From assembly GCF_963676685.1 (NCBI RefSeq), contig NC_092349.1:33728001-33792000 (forward strand): DNA of 64,000 nt. The letters are read 5' to 3'. This document shows, in pieces, positions 12,200 through 25,310 of this stretch (positions are counted from its first letter, which is position 1; every line of letters begins with the position of its first letter). Below the pieces are notes generated by a model. That model searched no databases and was not told where the DNA came from. It worked only from the letters and a program-made list of their open reading frames with translations. A program made the position numbers and the translations under genes. Origin of the DNA: Mytilus edulis (lineage: Eukaryota).

Positions 12200-12775
12200 G
12201 GTAGCACAATACAAAGATTTTTCATCCCCAATCAGACATCTTTAAACTGATGTAATTCCACTCATCCTTCTTTAAATTTAAAAAATGAGGAACCAAAAGA
12301 AAGAAGAATGATTAATCTTTTTAATTGTGATAATTTCATTATGACATAATTATTACATAATTAATTGTTATGTAATAAGTTGCTATCTTGTGATGTCCAT
12401 ACTTGAATGAATTTAGCTTCTTTGTTATGCATAGAATCCCGAAATATTTATAGATTCTTGCACAGCACAGTTTGACCTCCAAAACTGTGTCTCAGATTTT
12501 TCCTATTGTATTTCATTCTCTCATAAATCTTCAATGAAGTTTGCAACACCAATTCATAAGAGATCACTAAATTCAATGTGGTATAAAATTTGTTCTACTG
12601 ATGTTTTTGGAAATCTGAGACACAGTTTTGGAGGTCAAGCTGTGTTGTACAAGAATCTATAAAATATTTTGGGATGCTATAAATAACAAAGAAGCTAAAT
12701 TCATTCAAGTATGGACATCACAATATAGCAACTAATTACATAACAATTGATTATGTAATAATTATGTCATGAACT
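12200..12775. mobile_element. Foldback/MITE insertion in the Academ ORF with ~160-bp inverted arms
   Basis: 12341-12500 is the near reverse complement of 12612-12770. The left boundary begins TTAA|GGTAGCAC. Confidence 0.7.
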
Positions 12776-13482
12776 ATTAACTCGAGATGAAACATTTGCA
12801 CCTAGACACGTTATTCTTTCCGTATAAAGTTTACATAGATCTGAAAATTTGTAAACACTATAATTATGATCTCACCGCACGACCTTGTTTCATTCATATA
12901 AGAGACTAGTTCTGAAAATGCAAGCCATGGATTTGCCTTTCTTTCTTAGATTCGATACTATCATTTTTCATTTCAATTCGAGATGCACGATTATATAAGG
13001 AAACTAAACATTTAAATCACCAGCACTTAACTTTGCAAGCAATATTGTGTCATTTAATTTTACTGCACATTCTCTTACACATGTATCTTGTCTAAACTTG
13101 GAGGACTCGTGAAGGCCTTCTTGGCCATTTTCATTAAAGAAAAAGTACACAGACGGGTTACTGTTGGACTGAACGGAAAAGCTATGATAATGTCTAGTTT
13201 TCTTTTTAGGTGTGGTGGCTTCATCTATTCTCTCATGTGATGTTCGTTTTTCTGCTCTATTCAACTTTGTCTTGTTCAGTTTTAAGTTGCAAGATTTGTG
13301 CCAACAGGCCTTGTGATCAAGGAAAGACTGTGCTATTCCAGATACCTCATCTAATTTTTCAATACACACATTAATGCCTTCGGGCATCAATCGTAATGCA
13401 TGAAACTTCTTAATAATCTCAGCTAAAGATTGATAACCAGCCCCAACATTGAGACGTTTAGAATCAAATGGGCAGATCAGTT

Positions 13483-14454
13483 TGTCACGTACCGGGGGAA
13501 CGCAACTGCGTTACTCTGGGTTTCGTACCAGAGTCGTTTCTCTGGATACAGTCAAGGCTCAAGAATTGGTAGCGTTATTTTATCAACTGAATATTCGGAT
13601 TCTCTTTCTATTGATGCTGGGCGTCAAAATTAAGTAGGCTTTGGTATCAGACGAATAAAGCCAAGGATGATAATTATATTGACATCCCGGTATAATGCTT
13701 TATTTAATATCTGGATATACTTTTGCTTAGCCAGTGCTTTCTAAAAGCAACGAATTATTAATTATATACTGAGCCAGTGCTTTACTTGAAGCCACTGCTT
13801 TATATCTACTTTATTTGGGCCAGTGCGTGTGTTGGACTGTTTAATTGGTCTGAGTTACTTCTTTGCTCTTATTCAATGCTTCCCCGTCTGGAAATGCTTT
13901 ACCTTGTATACCGCCAATGCTTCTCTCTGAAGCCACTGCTTCTTCAGCAGCTATACTTAATTAATCACTTGGCTCCTTATTCAGGACCACTGCTTATAAT
14001 TCTAATTCAGAACTATAGATTAATCTCACCTTTCTTCTGTCTCTTCTTAACAATTCAACTGCTCAGCTTGAATTCCAAACCCAGAACAAACTGAACTGTG
14101 AAAACCTTGGTATATATAGTAAATTGTAGACTCGTCCATACAATAGACTATTCCAAAAACGACTTTATCACTAAAACGTTTTACAACACCTAATCATATA
14201 TGATATAACAAAGCACTATTGTGACGGTTATATACTTTGTAACAACTGATCATGATCGTGGGAATTCCGGATTTGTAGGTCAATTCCTGACCCCAAAACA
14301 TTTACTACTCACCCAGTAAAATGTAAACAAATCAAAAGTGAAAGTAAAACAATGTGTAAATAAATGAAGGGAATGAATGATATTTCTTTCTGTTGGACTT
14401 TACAATTGAATTATAAAATAAGCAAGAACCAGGTAAGTTTGCAAATTCATCACA
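13483..14454 (-). repeat. 3' LTR
   Basis: TGTCACGTACC ... TTCATCACA. About 98% identical by eye to the other LTR. Confidence 0.95.
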
Positions 14455-14470
14455 TTACCCACGCCTCTAA
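14455..14470 (-). promoter_or_regulatory. Polypurine tract (imperfect)
   Basis: - strand TAGAGGCGTGGGTAA directly before the 3' LTR. Confidence 0.6.
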
Positions 14471-15272
14471 GAAATGCGTCCCGGCATTTAACAAAATCAA
14501 TTGAGCACGTCTACACCAAGTGGACATTTTTCAGTCCCAAACTCTATCCGGGTATTGCCTCGAGCCATGTCATTCAAAAACCACAATTCTAAATATCATT
14601 AAACAACTGTTACTTCTTCAGTAACTTATCACTTAAACAACTGTTACTTATTCAGTAACTAACCACTAGAACAACTCGTAGATGTATAATCTACCCGACA
14701 TGACAAGATTCCCACTCAACTGTTTACTATTACTTAACATGGGCATCAACTTTAGAAGTTAACTTTATCCTAAGAACCCTTAAATCTGTATTTCAAATAT
14801 GCATGCTGACAGATTTTTGAACAAGTTATTTTGACCATGAAAACCAACAAGCCAAATAGTACATTTGAAAACCACCGAAAACATCACAAAGCCAAAACAT
14901 GGTATGAAATAATTTTGCCTAACAACCGGCCACTTATGGACCACTCAAAGAGCTTGTTGAAAGGGACCTTTTACGTGGACCTCGGATTTAACGTCCCCAT
15001 CCGACGGACATCATTATTATATATAATGTATACAAAGAAACAAGGCATTATATATCAACAACAAAACACACAAGTTTTCATAATTCTTGGAAATCTTTTT
15101 CCTTCAACAAGTAACAAAATATCTGTATTGTCTGTTCTTCACGAACCTTCACTTGTATATAAATCACACTATAAAGCTATCATAGTACGTATCTCGTCGT
15201 ACTGATCACTGAATAATTCTTTCAAGCCTACCTGGCTATGGTATTTGTATGCTTATTATTTCAAATGTCACT

Positions 15273-16053
15273 TCATCTTTTCCAGATTTCAGTTTCCTCT
15301 ACATCTTTTCCGTTTTCCTTGTATCTTCTAACCACTCTTCTTTCAACCAGCATCAATCCAGAGGTAGCTACTGGCCTGACAACCTGTGCTGGTACAAGGC
15401 TTGGGATGGTTCCAGTCGTAGTTGTCGTAACAGTTCTTAAGTCCATAGGCGGGGACGAGAACAACGGTGGTGATGGGTTTGACACGGAACTGTCATCTGA
15501 ATCAGTATCCATTATTCTCGGTATTAGAAACGAGCTTGACACAGGAGGTACCACTATAGTTGCAGTTGTGGTTTGTAACCTAGGCAATGCAAATCTCTTG
15601 GCTAATGGCTGTGGCCCTAACGAACTCTTTAGGGTATCTAGTAGTCTCTTCTTTGAAGAATTAGCCACCGGTATAGGAGACGTGCTCTTCCTGACTACTC
15701 TGCCTTTGATTAGTGATCCTGTAACCATCACTGATGTACCTGTTGTGCTTTTCGTGGATTTTGTAGGTTCTCCAAGGACATCCGATAGGGTGCCTGGATT
15801 TTGTTTCTCCCATTCACTATCGGTATCATCAATGGTTGACAAGGAGGCTGCATGTCTCCTCCTCTGGTGCCTCGTAAAATCACTCTCTCTGCTTGTTGCA
15901 TACGGACACCAATCACATAAGTACTCTTCTTCTGAAGACCTTTTCTTTGCACATCCTTTAACATGACCCTCCAATTCCTTCTCTGTTTGGAACCGTATTT
16001 TGGCAAACAGGGCACCTCCATCTTTCCCGTGGTGTCTTCTTTGTATTAGCCAT
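15273..16053 (-). pseudogene. Accessory ORF3 of the Gypsy element: C2HC + C2H2 zinc-finger protein with Ser/Thr/Pro-rich tail (~259 aa), one +1 frameshift near 15980
   Basis: ATG at 16053 gives MANTKKTPRERWRCPVCQNTVPNRE and continues ELEGHVKGC..YLCDWCPYATSRESDFTRHQRRRH (ORF 15273-15974). The span is 781 nt = 3n+1. Acceptor ttctcttatattacag lies directly before the ATG. Confidence 0.8.
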
Positions 16054-16124
16054 CTGTAATATAAGAGAACTCATTGTAAATATATACATGTATATACAAA
16101 ATTAAGTGTTATGTACAGTTATAC

Positions 16125-16660
16125 TTTCTATAAAATTGAGAATGAAAATGGGGAATGTGTCAAAGAGACAACAACCCGTCCAAATAAAAAACAACAGCAG
16201 AGGGTCACCAACAGTCTTCAATGTAGCGAGAAATTCCCGCACCCGGAGGCGTCCTTCAGCTGGCCCCTAAACAAATATATACTAGTCCAGTGATAATGAA
16301 CGCCATACTAATTTCCAAATGGTACACAAGAAACTAAAATTAAAATAATACAAGACTAACAAAGGCCAGAGGCTCCTGACTTGGGACAGGCGCAAAAATG
16401 CGGCGGGGTTAAACATGTTTGTGAGATCTCAACCCTCCCCCTATACCTCTAACCAATGTAGAAAAGTAAACGCATAACAATACGCACATTAAAATTCAGT
16501 TCAAGAGAAGTCCGAGTCTGATGTCAGAAGATGTAACTAAAGAAAATAAACAAAATGACAATAATACATAAATAACAACAGACTACTAGCAGTTAACTGA
16601 CATGCCAGCTCCAGACTTCAATTAAACTGACTGAAAGATTATGAACATCAGGCACTCGTT
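16125..16660. repeat. Dispersed repeat (Penelope-type tail) inserted between pol and ORF3
   Basis: Nearly the same sequence at 31610-32150 and 52415-52750. Shares the GACTTGGGACAGGC..GGCGGGGTT.AACATGTT block with 5385-5430. Confidence 0.8.
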
Positions 16661-16698
16661 TCATTCATTCATCATTTTTATTTATATTTTCTTTTACT

Positions 16699-19600
16699 TT
16701 AATCTTGAACATAATCATTTAACCAAGTGGGAGGCTTCCTTTCCCTTCTTAATCTTGGTAAATTAATGTGTTCGTCTTGTTCAATGGTCTCATATCTATT
16801 CTCAAAATCAAATTCAATTGGGGCACTTTCGTCAACAACTTGGGCTTGATCGTTCATTTCGGATACCTGATTTGACGGCTCGAGCCCTTGTAAACGCTCA
16901 CCTAATAATGGTTCACCTAACAACCGTTGATCCTTGCATCGTCTCATGCGATCAACATGAATCACTTGTGGTCGGCCCTTTCGGCCACAATATACTAGAT
17001 AGGTTACATCTGAGTATTGTTTTAGCACTTTAAAGGGACCCCGCCAATAACTTGTAAACTTAGGGGATTGGCCAAGCTTACGTACAGGAAAGAAAACAAA
17101 CACTTTATCATTTTTATTAAATTTATTCCAACTTAAATGTTTGTCATGATATTGCTTCTGTCGAAGCATTTCTCTGTTAACATGATTCTGTACAAACTGG
17201 TGGGCGTCTTCTATTCTTTCCTGTAACTCCAATACCCACTTGTTAGCTGGAATAGACTTCACTTCCCTTGGGAGTTCGTACATAATATCTACAGGAGTAG
17301 CTACTTCTCTTCCCATCATAATACGGTTCGGAGTGCTGCCGGTTGTTTCGTGTACAGATGTTCTGTAAGCCATCATCACATAAGGTAGAAGCTGATCCCA
17401 GTTTGTTTGATGTTCGTCCACGTACGCACTTAGCATTTTTACTAGAGTACTGTTGAACCTCTCAACCATACCATCGGATTGTGGGTGATATGGTGTTGTA
17501 CGGGTTTTGCTGATTTGTAGGAGGTTACACATTTCAGAGAAAAGCTCACTCTCAAACTGCGTTCCTTGATCTGAATGAATCAATGTAGGTACCCCGAATC
17601 TGCAAATAATTTCTGTTACTATGATATTTAGAACCGTTGATGCTTCCATGTTCTCCATGGGAAAGCTTTCTGTTCATTTTGTATAGTAATCAGCTGTCAC
17701 CAGTATGTATTTATTGTCGTTGGCGGTTTTTGGCAACTCGCCCAAAATGTCGACGGCTATCCTTTCCATAGGAAAGCCTGACCTTTGAATCTGCATTGGC
17801 GCTCTCTTTCGTTTTTGTAGGCCTTTCCTTCTTACACAGGTCTCACATCCTGTTATGTAGGCCACCACATCACGACGCATTCCAGGCCAATAAAACCTGT
17901 CTTTTAATCTTCCTAATGTTTTTCTTATCCCGAGATGTCCCGATGTCTTATTGCCATGGCATTGCTGTAAAATGACGCGCCTTTCTTTAATGGGTACGAT
18001 GACGCGTAGTTTGCCTCCCGTGCATTGCTCTTTGCACAATAAACCGTTATCAACTTTCAATGTTTCGTATTGCGACCATAAACTCTTAACTGCATAATTA
18101 CATTCCCCAATTTCTTTGAAAAGCGGTTTCTTGCCATTTATTACCCAAGTCTTTATCAAGGATATGTTTTCATCTTCTTGTTGTAGCACCAACAGCGTCT
18201 TATTTTCATCACTCCCATCATTTATACAGATAGCTATATAGCTGCTTCAGTCACCTCTATAGGGGGTGCTTGTGTAACAACATTAACACGTACTAGTTTC
18301 TTCTCCCAGTCTTGTTCGAAGCCACATTGTTTACATGGCATTCTGCTAAGGGCATCAGCATTTCTGTGTTGATTTCCAGGTCGGTGCTTAATTTTCATGT
18401 TATACGAACTAAGGACTTCCAGCCACCTCGCAAGCTGTCCTTCTGCGTTCTTAAAATTCATTAACCACTGCAGAGAGCTATGGTCGGTTCTGACAACAAA
18501 CGTTCTTCCATACAGAAAATGCCTAAAATGCTTAACAAAATGAACTACGGCGAGTAACTCTTTTCGTGTTACGCAATATTTACGCTCGGTCTTCGAAAGT
18601 GTACGGCTACCATAAGCAATAACCGTTTCTTTTCCGTCTATTTCCTGGGACAGGACTGCTCCAATTGCAGACTGACTTGCGTCTGTATCGAGTATAAAAG
18701 GTCTCGAAAAATCTGGATGTGACAGTTATTGCGCTTCGAGGAGCTTGGATCTCTGAAACGCATCTTGACACTTCTCAGTCCACAAGTATTCGCGACCCTT
18801 TTCCGTTAATTTGTGCAAACATTTTGCAATGCCTGCAAAATTTCCAATGTATCTCCTATAATATCCGCACAGGCCGAGAAAAGAGCGCAACTCGCTTATA
18901 TCTTTCGGTTCTGACCATTGCTTAATAACCTCCACTTTTTGTGGATCCGTTGCTACACCATCCTCACTTATTACATGTCCAAGGAAGGACACTGATTTTG
19001 CAAACAACGAACACTTTTTGAGTTTTAACTTTAACCCGGCGTCAATCAATCTATCAAAAACCTGTCTCTTCAAAATTTCTGCCAACTACAATAATGTCAT
19101 CCAAATATACTAAGCAAATGTTCCACTGTAGTCCAGCCATAAGTCTTTCCATTAACCGCTCAAATGTTGCCGGAGCACAGGCGACCCCAAACGGCATTTT
19201 ACGAAATTGGAAAAGTTCCAGCCGTGTCGCGAACGCAATTTTAGGGCGGTCACTCTCTTCTACCTCTACCTGCCAATAACCTGAGCAAAGGTCTAAAGTT
19301 GAGAACCACTTGTTGCCAGCTAGCTGCTCCAATGAATCGTCTATTCGAGGTAACGGATACGCGTCTTTTACCGTAAGGTCATTGAGTCGACGATAATCGA
19401 CACAGAAGCGAGTCGATCCGTCCTTCTTTTTCACAAGTACGATCCCTGATGACCAAGGCCCTTCAGACGGCTCGATCACGCCTCGTTCTAACATATTGTC
19501 AATATGTTTGTCAATTTCGTCGCGCATGGCTACCGGTGTCCGCCGAGGTGGTTGTTTGACAGGATAATTTGTTCCGATGTTGATGCGATGACGTACAATA

Positions 19601-19704
19601 CTAGTACATCCGAGATCGTTATCAGACAGCGCAAAAAGCGACTTGTATTGCTGCAAACAGTTAGTAACTTGATGTCTCTGCTTCTCAGTCAAATGGGAAC
19701 TTGC
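16699..19704 (-). pseudogene. pol: pol: reverse transcriptase, RNase H, integrase (frameshifts and stops)
   Basis: RFCVDYRRLN, YPLPRID, LDLCSGYWQ, MPFG, YLDD. RNase H TDAS..IGAVL and RTDH. Integrase H..GHLG..C..C, SDQG.QFES, YHPQSDGMVERFN and WRGPF. Confidence 0.95.
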
Positions 19705-21762
19705 TTAATTGACCAGCTTCTGCAGTTCGTTGTCAAGTTTTGGATTTTTGTGTTCTTTACTGGTGTTTCCAGTCATGGTGATGACATCTTTTACTGGGCT
19801 TATTTCTCCAACAATGGTTCCGGCTCGTATTGTTGTAACATTATTTGAAACATTTAGCAATCTAATTGGCACATGTTCTCGTGCTTCAACTAGGGTCTTT
19901 GCCAGTAAAGCGTTGTCCCTTTTTACAGACCTCTCGCATGGCTCAATAATGCCTATCTGTAGTTTACTGGTTAACGTATCATAGTCATTAATCCTACCAC
20001 GTGAAAAAGCTTCTGTTCCTGGTGGTATACTGATATCCTCTAAGGCTGAAATTCTGTAACAGCCTATTTTTCCAGAAAACGCCATAGGATATGTGTTACT
20101 TTTGCATTGAAGGGTTTCTTGTTGTAAATCTATTTTGCAATTATTCTTTTTCATAAAATCTAAACCCAGTATCCCGTCAATAGATATGTCGGCAACCAAA
20201 GCTTCAACTATAAACTTGTCTTGTCCAATCTCTATACAGAACATTCCCTTACCAGCTATGCTTAGCTCTGTTCCATTTGCCGAAATAATGACTTGGGTTA
20301 TTGGTTCAAGTTCCGGTCGTTCCTTTTTCTGTATTCTGTAAAACAAAGCGTGCGAAACTAAAGTTACTATGGCACCAGTGTCTATTAAAAACTTGATAAG
20401 CTGGTTATGAACGGCGACGTCAATGTACGCACCAGCTTCCATGTTTGAAGCATCTGCTCCCACGTTAATTTTTCTTCTTTCCATCCTCCTGTGCCGACTG
20501 TTGTAGTGTAAAGGCCGCACTGCTCCGTTTCCTCTACCATTGTTTCCATTGTAAGGCTTCTTAGGAGCTCTACATTCATTTCTAAAATGTCCAAATCTTC
20601 CACAATTGTAGCACTGTATCTTGTCTTTCCGTCCAGGCATATGAGTATCAGAGTCTTTCCTTGTCATATCGCTTTTAAAATTATCAAGGTCCTTTTGGAG
20701 GGATTCAATTTTTGTTGAAAAGTCATCCATCATTTTTGCCATTTTATCGTAAGACTCATTTGGTTCTGTGCATGTGGCGCGCAAATGACCTCTGCCAGTG
20801 TCGTATTTTCTTTCAGCCTTGTAAAAAGCTTCTAATTCTACGGCAAGACATATTGTTTGATTGAGGTTTTCCGGCCTAGATTGTTTTATCCTTATTCTCA
20901 TCTGTGAATCCACAAGAGAATCTAAAAATTGTTCCCTTGCTAAAGTTTCTTTAACCTCGCTTGGTGCGTTGGGATAAGCCTTGTTTACCAATCTTCTTAT
21001 GGCCTGACCAAGCTCCGGCAAACTTTCACTTGCTTTTTGTCTTCTTTCTTTTAATTGTACTCGGTACAACTCAGTCTGGTTTGGAGGCGAAAATCTTTCT
21101 TGCAATGCCTTTATTAAGGTATTATAATCCATTCTTTTCTCAGTAGGTAGATCACTAAACACTCCCTGTGCTTGTCCTCTTAAAGCTGTTGCAAAGTACA
21201 GACCCTTCTCTTGGTCATCCCAGTTGTTGATCACCGCACAGGCATCAAAATGTGACTTAAAATCGCTCCATTCACTCGTTCCATCATAGTTGGCAAGCTT
21301 AATTTCGCGCCGTGTCTTCCCGTGGCTAGGTTTGTCAGCGGAATTAGTGTTGCGGACTTGCTTGTTTTGGCGTAATTCTTCCCTCAGTATCGGTGATACA
21401 TCTGGCATCGGCATTGCTTCGGTTCCTGTTTCTTTCTTTGTGGTGTGTGTCTTCTGCGTTGTCTGTTCTTTTGGCCGCGCTCCTTTATAGTCCGTCTTTA
21501 TAGTGGTAAATGGCCCATATAAACGTGGCACTTCGGGTGTTGGAACATTCCGATCTGTACCGACACTGGCACGCTGCGTATTTTGCATGAAATCGCCGTG
21601 ACGCGTTTGAATTATACCAGAGTCACTTAAACCTTTTACTGGGATTTTTGGGGTAGAATGTAAATTTGCACTTGGTCCCTGGCTCATTACAGTCTGCATT
21701 CTATCGCTTGATTCTTCTTCTAACAAACTTATTTGCTGCTCTAACTCATTATACTTGTCCAT
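19705..21762 (-). CDS. gag: gag-protease (N-terminal part of a single gag-pol frame; in-frame stop at 19705-19707)
   Basis: 685 aa. Capsid-like RRQKASESL, zinc knuckle CYNCGRFGHFRNEC, aspartic protease FLIDTGA..GILGLDF. The RT frame continues in phase after the TAA. Confidence 0.93.
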   Translation of the reverse strand: MDKYNELEQQISLLEEESSDRMQTVMSQGPSANLHSTPKIPVKGLSDSGIIQTRHGDFMQNTQRASVGTDRNVPTPEVPRLYGPFTTIKTDYKGARPKEQTTQKTHTTKKETGTEAMPMPDVSPILREELRQNKQVRNTNSADKPSHGKTRREIKLANYDGTSEWSDFKSHFDACAVINNWDDQEKGLYFATALRGQAQGVFSDLPTEKRMDYNTLIKALQERFSPPNQTELYRVQLKERRQKASESLPELGQAIRRLVNKAYPNAPSEVKETLAREQFLDSLVDSQMRIRIKQSRPENLNQTICLAVELEAFYKAERKYDTGRGHLRATCTEPNESYDKMAKMMDDFSTKIESLQKDLDNFKSDMTRKDSDTHMPGRKDKIQCYNCGRFGHFRNECRAPKKPYNGNNGRGNGAVRPLHYNSRHRRMERRKINVGADASNMEAGAYIDVAVHNQLIKFLIDTGAIVTLVSHALFYRIQKKERPELEPITQVIISANGTELSIAGKGMFCIEIGQDKFIVEALVADISIDGILGLDFMKKNNCKIDLQQETLQCKSNTYPMAFSGKIGCYRISALEDISIPPGTEAFSRGRINDYDTLTSKLQIGIIEPCERSVKRDNALLAKTLVEAREHVPIRLLNVSNNVTTIRAGTIVGEISPVKDVITMTGNTSKEHKNPKLDNELQKLVN

Positions 21763-21802
21763 TTTTAATATTTTATTTAAAATATATCCAGAGCCTTGCT
21801 GT

Positions 21803-21820
21803 ATCCCACCGCTGCCACCA
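21803..21820 (-). promoter_or_regulatory. Primer-binding site complementary to tRNA-Leu 3' end
   Basis: - strand TGGTGGCAGCGGTGGGAT. The + strand ATCCCACCGCTGCCACCA equals the 3' end (with CCA) of metazoan tRNA-Leu(AAG/TAG type) as recalled. It lies 7 nt from the LTR. Confidence 0.85.
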
Positions 21821-22449
21821 CAAACTGTGTCACGTACCGGGGTTACGCAACTGCGTTACTCTGGGTTTCGTACCAGAGTCGTTTCTCTGCATACTGTCAA
21901 GGCTCAAAAATTGGTAGCGTTATTTTATCAACTGAATATTCGGATTCTCTTTATATTGATGCTGGGCGTCAAAATTAAGTAGGCTTAGGTATCAGACGAA
22001 TAATGCCAATGATGATAATTATATTGACATCCCGGTATAATGCTTTATTTAATATCTGGATATACTTTTGCTTAGCCAGTGCTTTCTAAAAGCAACGAAT
22101 TATTAATTATATACTAAGCCAGTGCTTTACTTGAAGCCAGTGCTTTACTTGAAGCCATTGCTTTATATCTATTTTATTTGGGCCAGTGCGTGTGTTGGAC
22201 TGTTTAATTGGTCTGAGGGTACTTCTTTGCTCTTATTCAATGCTTCCCCGTCTGGAAATGCTTTACCTTGTATACCGCCAATGCTTCTCTCTGAAGCCAC
22301 TGCTTCTTCAGCAGCTATACTTAATTAATCACTTGGCTCCTTATTCAGGACCACTGCTTATAATTCTTATTCAGAACTATAGATTAATCTCACCTTTCTT
22401 CTGTCTCTTGTTAACAATTCAACTGCTCAGCTTGAATTCCAAACCCAGA

Positions 22450-22482
22450 ACAAACTGAACTGTGAATACCTTGGTATATATA
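22450..22482 (-). promoter_or_regulatory. Candidate LTR core promoter (TATA plus TCAGTT initiator)
   Basis: - strand TATATATA (22475-22482) followed about 20-25 nt later by TCAGTT (22453-22458). The same arrangement is present in the other LTR. Confidence 0.45.
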
Positions 22483-22683
22483 GTAAATTGTAGACTCGTC
22501 CATACAATAGACTATTCCAAAAACGACTTTATCACTAAAACGTTTTACAACACCTAATCATATATGATATAACAAAGCACTATTGTGACGGTTATATACT
22601 TTGTAACAACTGATCATGATCGTGGAAATTCCGGATTTGTAGGTCAATTCCTGACCACAAAACATTTACTACTCATCCAGTAA

Positions 22684-24210
22684 CAGTTGGACGGCAAACG
22701 TTTTAATGGCTTCTAAGGTCAAGACATTGGTCACGTGATAAAAGGTCGGAGTTTACGATTTTTTGGTAAACGTGCATGCCTCGTGGTTTTTGGACTCGTA
22801 TTGACTTATTTGTACACGTACATTAATAAAACCAAAGTGGTCAATTCTAGATTGAATTAGCTTCCTTATTTTATATAATTATTATTAAAAAGTGTTGTTA
22901 AAATGTTATAAATTCACGAGTGAAGAGTAACTTTTTTTCTGAAAATTAGCGTAGGTCCACGGAAAATCCTTAATTATACCTTAAATAGTTTTGGTAACGT
23001 GTTGAGGGGTATAAAATATGAAGTAAAACCAGGACTAAGCCACTGGACTATATGTAAAGTATTCCCTTACTAATCCTTATAGGAGCTGCTGTATACTTAG
23101 AAAAAATGATGTTGAGGACTTGGCCCCATCAATCAGCATTTTAGACATTACATTATTGTCAATTGCAATCTGCTCTATTTGTTCCAACCTATAATGAGTA
23201 TCAAAATTTATACCTAGGGTGGAAATTAAACCCATGTATGTTCATTTACTCTATTGTTCTTTGTGTACATAAAATGTACATGTATATGAAATATATCAAA
23301 TGCAAAAAAAAAAAAATTTGCTGTAATGTAAATATGGTAATTTGTAAACATCATTACACCCTCATTATTTAAAGTCCTAGTAAAGGAAGTCCTTGCACCT
23401 AGCTAGACGTGTTTCTTAGGCAAGATGTCTTATATAACAATTGAAAGTATAACACGATAAAGGTTGCAAGTATATAGTAACATCAACGTGCACACTATCA
23501 AACATAAACAATCTACCACGTGTTTGTCTGCTGTGCTTGAATTCAAAACGACCCATCAGGCTTATTTACACGGTTTTTTGCTAAAGCAGACAGTTAAATA
23601 TGTCTGTTTACCTTATGAGGTCTGTTAAGAATGGATTTGCTGTTATGACTTGTGAATTGCATGGAAATTTAATGAAGAAACCATTGATTTTTACCGTAAC
23701 TTTTGAATACACAACATTCTCAAGGTATCCCCGCAAAACACATGGCTACTTTGTAACGATGGCTGGTAACTTGTAGCCACTTTCTAACGGTAAATGTGAT
23801 TGGATGATCTTCAAAGATCAATAATAAAATTGCTAATAAATGATTGGATACGAAATTGTGTCAGATTATAAATAGAGGGAAAAATGTAAACATTGAAATC
23901 CGCCATTTTGACGTAGGAAACAAACTAATTTTCAATCTTGGATTAAAGGACATTGCGCACATTGCCAGCGTATCATACATAACCAGTCATCTGCAAATAT
24001 ATCTTTCAATTAGTTTTTTACACTTACTTTTCTATGTTTTAGTTAATTTAATGTTTTAATTTACTACAGAACGGGACATCGTTCTCAAAGATGCCGTAGA
24101 AAAAAATATAGGGGGCGCTGTTTGTGGGCGTAAACATTTTACATACGGGTCCTTTTTGTGTCGACAAGTTGACCTTTGTCTGTCAGATTCAGGCGTTTGC
24201 CGTCCAACTG
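22684..24210. mobile_element. 1527-bp non-autonomous TIR DNA transposon in the 5' LTR, superfamily unassigned
   Basis: Perfect 17-bp TIR CAGTTGGACGGCAAACG. 4-bp TSD GTAA (22680-22683 and 24211-24214). The empty site is visible in the 3' LTR. Confidence 0.92.
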
Positions 24211-24349
24211 GTAAAATGTAAACAAATCAAAAGTGAAAGTAAAACAATGTGTAAATAAATGAAGGGAATGAATGATATTTCTTTCTGTTGGACTTTACAA
24301 TTGGATTATAAAATAAGCAAGAACCAGGTAAGTTTGCAAATTCATCACA

Positions 24350-24465
24350 AGTTTTTCATCTATAATTTCTTGGCATAGGATGCAATTTGCCCAATCAATA
24401 TTATTTGATTTATTCGGTTTGTCATATTCTACACTTAATACCCTGAATGTCTTTCCAGTAGCCAT
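24350..24465 (-). pseudogene. N-terminus of the Academ-type transposase
   Basis: MATGKTFRVLSVEYDKPNKSNNIDWANCILCQEIIDEK. Joins in frame to LICPFDSKR (left of 13479) once the Gypsy and one TSD copy are removed. Confidence 0.85.
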
Positions 24466-24523
24466 GTTGTATAAAGAACTATGAGCATAAATTGGTTCAT
24501 ATATTCCTCGTGGATAACTTGTG

Positions 24524-24572
24524 TATGCCAGACGCGTGTTTCGTCTACAAATGACGTATCAGTGACGCTTGA
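24524..24572 (-). ncRNA. Degenerate hammerhead motif (core CTGATAC)
   Basis: - strand GCGTCA-CTGATAC-GTCATTTGTAGAC-GAAA-CACGCG-TC-TGGCAT. The core is mutated, so probably inactive. Confidence 0.55.
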
Positions 24573-24714: not shown

Positions 24715-25310
24715 CTTGGCGGGCATTTTGAATTTGTCGGCCATTATCGAATTATTTTTAATTGTTCCATATTTAGAAAAGATAAATTAGCATCATAACT
24801 AGCAATATGCAAAGTGTTGTGCTTTTATTTTCAATTGATAAATTATACCTTATTTTGGGACTCAGCCTCATCATTTGCTCATGAATGTGGGACGGCTATT
24901 TTGAAATTGGCGGCCATTATGGAATTATTTTTTTATTTTTCTATATTCGTAAAAGATTAATATGCACCATAACTAGCAATATGCAAAGTGTTGTACTTTT
25001 ATTTTCAAATGTTCAATTATATCATTTTTTTTAACCTGCCAAGTGACTGTTGGCCGCCATTTTGAATTTGTCGGCCATTATGGGATTATTTTTATTTTTC
25101 CATATTCAGAAAATATTAATTACCATCATAACCAGCAATATGCAATGTTTTGTGCTTTTATTTTCAAATGATAAATTATACTATAGTTTTGCTTTCTGAC
25201 TGTTGGCAGCCATTTTCAAATTGATGGCCATTCTGGATTTATTTTTGAAGGCTCCATATCCAAAAATGTTTATAAGCATCATAATTAACACTGTACAAAG
25301 TTTCATGTTT
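24715..25310. repeat. Subterminal tandem repeats (~150-175 bp x ~4) of the Academ element
   Basis: Units begin near 24718, 24893, 25053 and 25205 with GCCATTTTGAA.TTG.CGGCCATTAT. Confidence 0.85.

Follow-up and report, generated by a model that had tools for sequence, protein, structure and literature searches.

Behind the integrase gene of a retrotransposon in the mussel Mytilus edulis lies a third open reading frame, ORF3, which by its substitution pattern is under purifying selection and whose predicted product combines two zinc fingers with an N-terminus resembling the tail of histone H3. In our leading reading, to which we give roughly even odds, this conserved accessory gene, found in a clade of bivalve Gypsy elements, encodes a trans-acting, chromatin-directed activator or anti-silencer of its own family.

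The element and its third reading frame

The analyzed stretch of DNA (the window) comprises 64 kb of the Mytilus edulis genome and contains an LTR retrotransposon that extends from 24349 to 13483 on the minus strand and is bordered on each side by the 4-bp target duplication AACT. All features of the element described here lie on this strand unless otherwise stated. The 5' LTR (21828..24349, TGTGATG...GTGACA) is interrupted at 22684-24213 by an inserted 1.5-kb inverted-repeat element with inverted ends of 27 nt, and the 3' LTR is located at 13483..14454. Identity between the two LTRs is 95.6% across 855 nt and 99.3% across 139 nt, and the TATA-like box (22473..22482) falls in the same position class across all LTRs examined. 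The element further contains a primer-binding site (21803..21820), presumably of the tRNA-Leu type, and a polypurine tract (14455..14468). The gag-PR-RT-RH-IN region (16699..21762) contains three stops and two frameshifts in the window copy and forms one frame of 1714 aa in two sister copies. Pfam identified gag, protease, RT, RNase H and integrase in Gypsy order, and the named protein matches of the element were from Mytilus. Thus, based on the two LTRs, the primer-binding site, the polypurine tract, the short target duplication and the gene order, the element is a Ty3/Gypsy LTR retrotransposon.

Searches against Rfam gave no matches within 13400-24400, and no tRNA was found in the 64-kb window. 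A high-copy repeat of 521 bp (16133..16653, no strand assigned) lies between the pol stop and ORF3, upstream of the splice acceptor, in this copy only. A 3' UTR motif at 14970-15010, which we take to resemble a SINE core, is common to families A and D and had no match in Rfam; the family D deletion ends there. Outside the element, we observed a Cys-containing frame split by the retrotransposon (24351-24558 and 13004-13482), with no significant Pfam match and presumably resembling a DNA-transposon gene, as well as a near-perfect palindrome of 430 bp (12341-12770) and an array of repeats of about 160 bp (24716-25250).

ORF3 is located at 15273..16053, with the ATG at 16053 and the stop at 15273; the stop-to-stop frame is 15273-16070, and the integrase stop lies upstream at 16699. 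The frame is broken inside the first finger, where the preliminary description had also placed an error, although the break is near 15998 and not 15980. The copy in the window is therefore a defective representative of its family. Searching the genome at the DNA level produced 10 matches, five of which were sisters at 91-96%, and one of these five carries the unbroken frame of 258 aa. The protein analysis was based on natural unbroken copies and not on a corrected window frame. The finger sequence reconstructed earlier mismatches the unbroken sisters, but the arrangement it implied, C-x2-C-x12-H-x3-C followed by C-x2-C-x12-H-x4-H, is present in them.

The expectation of an intact frame with a dN/dS below 1 was borne out by this sister frame and by ratios of 0.08-0.25 in 12 of 12 usable pairs from families A, B and D (P from 6e-5 to 1e-19). 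In total, 15 pairs were tried; they share a reference copy and are hence not independent, and the rows without a usable ratio had no differences (L042), two differences (L045) or no alignment (L047). The window copy compared with sister L041 gave 0.18 (P 3e-10). Shifted frames of ORF3 gave 0.8-2.3, and the ORF3 ratio resembles those of gag, RT-RH and integrase. We conclude from these substitution patterns that ORF3 is a non-chance frame under purifying selection. Within individual pairs (L041, L048 and L052 against sisters, representing three families), dS was higher in ORF3 than in gag-pol by a factor of 1.6-4. Between the A subtypes, the divergence of ORF3, like that of the LTR segment downstream of the donor, is 2-3 times greater than that of gag-pol. 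The high dS is not explained by CpG decay, with only 7-8 of 42-44 transitions touching CpG; recombination between subtypes is perhaps the source.

The preliminary description had recognized a third ORF on the sense strand after the integrase and had held that it is not env, and this was confirmed: the highest 19-residue hydropathy among 26 homologues is 1.38, with no transmembrane stretch, and Pfam shows fingers only. A host fragment captured in this copy alone was likewise rejected, since sisters carry ORF3 and its evolution is not neutral. One copy (L045, G000:C378) has an internal deletion of PR, RT and RH, retains ORF3 and has LTRs 99.2% alike, making it a carrier without pol.

Zinc fingers and N-terminus of the ORF3 protein

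The first finger (15951..16014), which contains the frame break, is of the C2HC type with an acidic helix, and the second (15852..15917) is of the C2H2 type with basic residues at helix positions -1 and 6. The motifs W-x3-(D/N)-P-G (15792..15812) and R-K-x-T-x-P-x-P (15669..15692) follow, and these, together with the start and both fingers, make up the conserved columns in 25 homologues. Helix positions -1, 3 and 6 are the usual DNA contacts of a C2H2 finger. In the second finger, position -1 is K or R in 22 of 23 sequences, position 6 is R or K in all 23 and position 3 is D or N in 17; the first finger is acidic where the second has its contact residues. The second finger carries residues of the DNA-contact type, and DNA binding is predicted.

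The AlphaFold model of the ORF3 protein was mostly disordered (mean pLDDT 51). Foldseek searches with this model gave no match at E<=0.001, and a sequence search of the PDB returned generic C2H2 proteins only. We rejected a ZNF512-type finger pair, as PF21276/PF21367 matched 0 of 8 proteins, and an internal NuRD-interaction motif, RK(x)xxPxK/R, as position 8 is Pro in 22 of 25 homologues and not basic. Atlas look-alikes of ORF3 (recognition 2028) fall below the Atlas bar and are leads only. A TQT/VQT motif, presumably of the dynein light chain LC8 type, occurs in the C-terminal half of 16 of 26 homologues and is absent from family A.

The preliminary description proposed a nuclear regulator, and features of this kind are present in a real, selected ORF3, but the H3-like N-terminus had been missed. 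Counted after Met, the ORF3 start aligns in register with residues 1-9 of H3, taken from this genome. In the window copy (16024..16050), five of the nine residues are identical to H3 (A1, T3, K4, T6 and R8). The comparison covered 26 divergent homologues with less than 60% identity, nine of 35 proteins having been dropped as over 60% alike. Among these 26, T3 is kept in 23, K4 in 25, T6 in 25, R8 in 20 and K9 in 21, while R2 is kept in none and A7 in three, position 7 being Pro in 17. One protein, P0039, was given the wrong Met and was kept in the 26-row set but left out of the 25-row set; with this row excluded, K4 and T6 are found in 25 of 25, equal to the zinc ligands. Directly after Met, at residue 2, 25 of the 26 homologues have A, V or P, and by the aminopeptidase rule such residues are compatible with removal of the initiator Met.

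Scored on the family matrix, H3 1-9 gave 18 bits and the next H3 window -4.8. A score of 18 bits was reached by 1 of 5,000,000 random 9-mers and by 2 of 144,554 real 9-mers, both of which were ORF3 within fused gene models. The distance from Met to the motif is fixed, with a spacer to the first Cys that ranges from 1 to 16, and the N-terminal codons vary synonymously, which suggests that the constraint acts on the amino acids. As a check for circularity, all 26 homologues matched a profile without the N-terminus (E<=4e-5), and the motif is carried by families F, G and H, found via integrase, and by P0198, found via a hit without its start. Judged by these scores, the H3 likeness exceeds chance; it was noticed after the fact, yet the margin is wide. 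The likeness of the predicted ORF3 N-terminus to the H3 tail is a new observation here.

Splice sites and RNA evidence

A polypyrimidine tract plus CAG (ttctcttatattacag, 16054..16070) ends at 16054 and adjoins the ATG at 16053, as the preliminary description had stated. This acceptor is conserved: a pyrimidine tract with YAG at most 16 nt from the ATG was found in 15 of 20 third ORFs (five rows being family A kin; 6 of 7 when counted by family), as compared to 84 of 2149 and 146 of 3947 other ATGs (3.7-3.9%). The distance from AG to ATG was 0 to 15 nt. For the ORF3 mRNA, we predict the donor AAG/GTGAGA (22388..22397, cut at 22394/22393) within the LTR. The donor comparison covered families A to G. 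At 69-88 nt beyond the TATA box of the LTR, a candidate donor occurs in A, B, C and D and in one of two F copies; family G has one at about 108 nt, by eye, and family E a weaker candidate in 3 of 6. The donor proposed earlier at the end of U5, CCG/GTACGT, exists at 21838/21837, but it is part of the LTR end and its GT is missing in families B, D, E, F and G. The comparison of LTRs makes the donor at 22394/22393 likelier than the one at the U5 end.

Reads from 4 runs were mapped, of which X2 is probably RNA. Contig 10 from X2 covers 15097-16055 and has 28 additional unaligned letters, placed upstream of the acceptor by the numbering of other minus-strand records, and the genome match ends at the acceptor. 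Unspliced contig sequence would have aligned here, because the sisters are near-identical upstream of the acceptor. An upstream exon with AAG as its last letters would account for the contig edge at 16055. The LTR donor would give such an exon and the CCG at the U5 end would not, but a host exon with this ending would fit as well. The depth in X2 was 16-21 over ORF3 versus 0-5 over gag-pol, X1 showed no excess over ORF3 and X24 had no ORF3 reads. Depth in X21 was under 3-fold, and its few first mates map to the minus strand, an orientation that would indicate antisense RNA if the library is of a common stranded type. No junction reads to the ORF3 acceptor were among the joints listed, a list swamped by the inserted repeat. 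Taken together, ORF3 is likely expressed from a spliced RNA. For the spliced subgenomic expression suggested earlier, the acceptor has thus held and is joined by indirect RNA evidence from the contig edge, but the proposed donor has not.

Two observations concern neighboring splice sites. In the RefSeq model P0034 (L043; G000:C3:36639367 and 36652399), a host selenium-binding-protein exon 13 kb upstream is spliced onto the ORF3 acceptor. In L052 (sense, about 2120-2210), the family D leader contains an acceptor and a second strong donor between the primer-binding site and the gag ATG, resembling a cassette exon.

Loss of ORF3, proposed function and known counterparts

The integrase searches scored 123 and 129 of about 1900 candidates, the resulting counts being lower bounds, and copies were surveyed in 60 genome stretches of about 10 kb. 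At least eight families fall in one clade (quick integrase tree, 34 rows, SH-aLRT 100), and an ORF3 homologue was found behind the integrase in 7 of the 8 families of the clade found here. Among the copies examined, ORF3 was absent from 8 of 9 in family C, 4 of 7 in family D and 15 of 15 in family E. The deletion in C and that in D each have a single common breakpoint, and the acceptor was removed along with ORF3. The lineages without ORF3 have long pol frames and LTR pairs that are mostly 99-100% alike, and the LTR pairs of family E, at 99.4-100% in 7 copies, show that it is young. These long frames and near-identical LTR pairs suggest that at least three losses of ORF3 have been survived, and since young lineages without it arose at least three times, that ORF3 is not needed in cis. 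The preliminary description had considered that sister copies might lack ORF3; the family A sisters carry it, but young lineages without it are numerous in C, D and E. The LTRs of C copies and most D copies without ORF3 differ by 0-5% from those of carriers over most windows compared; in L067, also without ORF3, the LTR has diverged as well. The ORF3 tree, with 1 of 14 branches starred, is only loosely like the integrase tree.

In a profile search of 1.8 billion proteins, some 30 of the 150 best entries were short homologues with a single match, and the others were generic multi-finger proteins; among 20 clusters looked up the two named ones were from Pinctada imbricata and Argopecten irradians. 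The viral contigs searched contained 0 ORF3 relatives, and a metagenome search with P0198 gave 6 weak matches confined to the finger region. In public protein sets of mussel, pearl oyster and scallop, ORF3 genes are annotated as ordinary host zinc-finger genes. Among distant outgroup Gypsy elements (L088-L100), 10 of 13 have other long ORFs behind the integrase with Cys/His finger-like starts, and an acceptor was present at the ATG in 6 of 9 tested; the third ORF of L097 adds a BTB domain, and L093 has a GDSL/SGNH hydrolase instead. The H3-like start was found in none of the elements L088-L100. Named mollusc Gypsy clades include MolGy and C-clade, according to the consulted part of PMC6238403.

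Starting from the observed features (position behind the integrase, selection, acceptor at the ATG, C2HC and C2H2 fingers, H3 match and repeated loss), we infer the steps beyond the acceptor as follows. A short LTR exon, provided by the candidate LTR donor, would be spliced to the ORF3 acceptor, and the initiator Met would be removed from the protein, freeing the H3-like tail. The second finger may then bind repeated LTR motifs such as TGAATAAG. Three of these motifs, together with family-specific repeats, lie downstream of the donor at 22232..22373 as candidate cis sites; there are 3-4 per LTR in families A, B and C versus 0.04 expected, and none in the family D LTRs. The tail would engage readers or writers of H3K4/K9, and the protein would keep its family transcribed in trans. 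Lineages without ORF3 but with near-identical LTRs would ride on the protein made by carriers. Against this, we count that one DNA-type finger gives little specificity, that the upstream exon of the contig could be a host exon, that H3 R2 is lost, with Pro7 and alternative roles for T-P-R-K, that family E is young without ORF3, and that ORF3 is present in just 1 of 9 C and 3 of 7 D copies. A more far-reaching version falls somewhat short of even in our estimate: a spliced H3-mimic finger protein docks on its own LTR, decoys or recruits the H3K4/K9 machinery and acts in trans against silencing, with cheater lineages, and accessory regulators are the rule in mussel Gypsy because other clades there fill the slot with unrelated finger proteins.

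The same chromatin contact could instead recruit silencing to the element's own LTRs, so that ORF3 would be a self-repressor controlling copy number and losers would multiply faster. We regard this as unlikely. ORF3-less copies do outnumber carriers in C (8 of 9) and D (4 of 7) and account for all 15 E copies examined, and C2HC plus C2H2 is the arrangement of the repressor ZNF512B (PMC11602157, in part; also an Atlas lead). However, the NuRD motif of ZNF512B requires K/R at position 8 in the portion of PMC11602157 consulted, where ORF3 has Pro, PF21276 matched 0 of 8 proteins, and long purifying selection across seven families is harder to explain for a brake that individual copies may lose.

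Two further alternatives appear less probable still. ORF3 might be an RNA factor of the Rev or CERV type that binds unspliced RNA and aids its export or limits splicing, and lineages in which the acceptor is deleted could then do without it. This agrees with the deletions in C and D, which take the acceptor together with ORF3, with a donor that would lie upstream of the primer-binding site, as in foamy viruses (PMC3694450, in part), and with the CERV protein of Cer1, a spliced Gypsy accessory protein required for gRNA export (PMC10309623, in part). An RNA factor would nevertheless leave the in-register H3 match and the DNA-type finger helix unexplained, and CERV, according to the available text of PMC10309623, is large and has G and M domains; we noticed no likeness to it in ORF3. 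At a similarly low probability, the N-terminus might be a basic DNA-binding arm, a nuclear-import signal or a CDK site that resembles H3 by coincidence. T-P-R-K, present in most rows, is presumably also a CDK-type or DNA-minor-groove motif. R2 is never kept, the Atlas look-alikes include a cluster with 12% GAGA-finger members (at a low recognition score), and the lack of R2 in all 26 homologues, with Pro at position 7 in 17 of them, would not suit many H3 readers. Such roles do not, however, need T3, K4 or a fixed distance from the start Met; conservation is lower at Pro7 (17 of 26) than at K4 and T6 (25 of 26), and P0050 is identical to H3 at 8 of 9 positions.

The activator or anti-silencer that we favor has counterparts in several systems. 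Foamy viruses have a 3' accessory regulator, Tas, and SNAG domains are reportedly mimics of the H3 tail. In foamy viruses, too, the major donor lies within the LTR and precedes the poly(A) signal (PMC3694450, in part); unlike the mussel element, they are Retroviridae with env. In the LTR retrotransposons Vesta and Juno of bdelloid rotifers, non-env ORF3s are typically expressed from spliced messages and are likewise located behind the integrase and gained and lost across lineages, but as far as PMC5408684 was consulted they are GDSL esterases, DEDDy exonucleases and transmembrane or coiled-coil proteins, and 'zinc' has 0 occurrences in its main text. CERV of C. elegans Cer1 is also a nuclear accessory regulator of a Gypsy-class element made from spliced RNA; it is large, acts in RNA export and has a possible C4 finger, in contrast to the approximately 250 aa, C2HC plus C2H2 fingers and H3-like start of ORF3 (PMC10309623, in part). 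ZNF512 and ZNF512B share an atypical C2HC followed by C2H2 and an internal R-K-x-x-x-P stretch, but have four finger pairs versus one in ORF3, which lacks a ZNF512 Pfam match and the essential last basic residue of the NuRD motif (consulted sections of PMC11602157).

VANC of the Arabidopsis VANDAL elements resembles our working model in being family-specific, trans-acting and tied to short repeated motifs; it is an unrelated protein from a plant DNA transposon, with DNA demethylation shown (PMC6719617, in part). The ARSK motif of influenza H3N2 NS1 also resembles the H3 N-terminus over a short stretch and is directed at host chromatin factors, but it comprises four residues at the C-terminus of a protein from an infectious virus (PMC7958646, in part). 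In ORF3, the likeness extends over nine residues, lacks R2 and is located at the actual N-terminus of a protein encoded by a retrotransposon. The ORF3 family was not found in the consulted portions of the full-text literature on architecture or transposon histone mimicry (including PMC2774666, PMC7998251, PMC10611923 and PMC6238403); Repbase, Dfam, subscription papers and supplements lie outside this scope and could annotate it. Non-env ORF3s, a spliced regulator, anti-silencing in trans and viral H3 mimicry are thus already known in kind, each in other systems. Few publications describe counters to silencing that are encoded by the element itself, and most of these concern plants; known cases of histone mimicry come mainly from infectious viruses. 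In an animal retrotransposon protein, an H3-like tail whose conservation equals that of the zinc ligands raises the question of whether retrotransposons themselves manipulate host chromatin. Cooperation versus cheating among elements also becomes measurable, since natural pairs, one with ORF3 and one lacking it, occur in the same genome.
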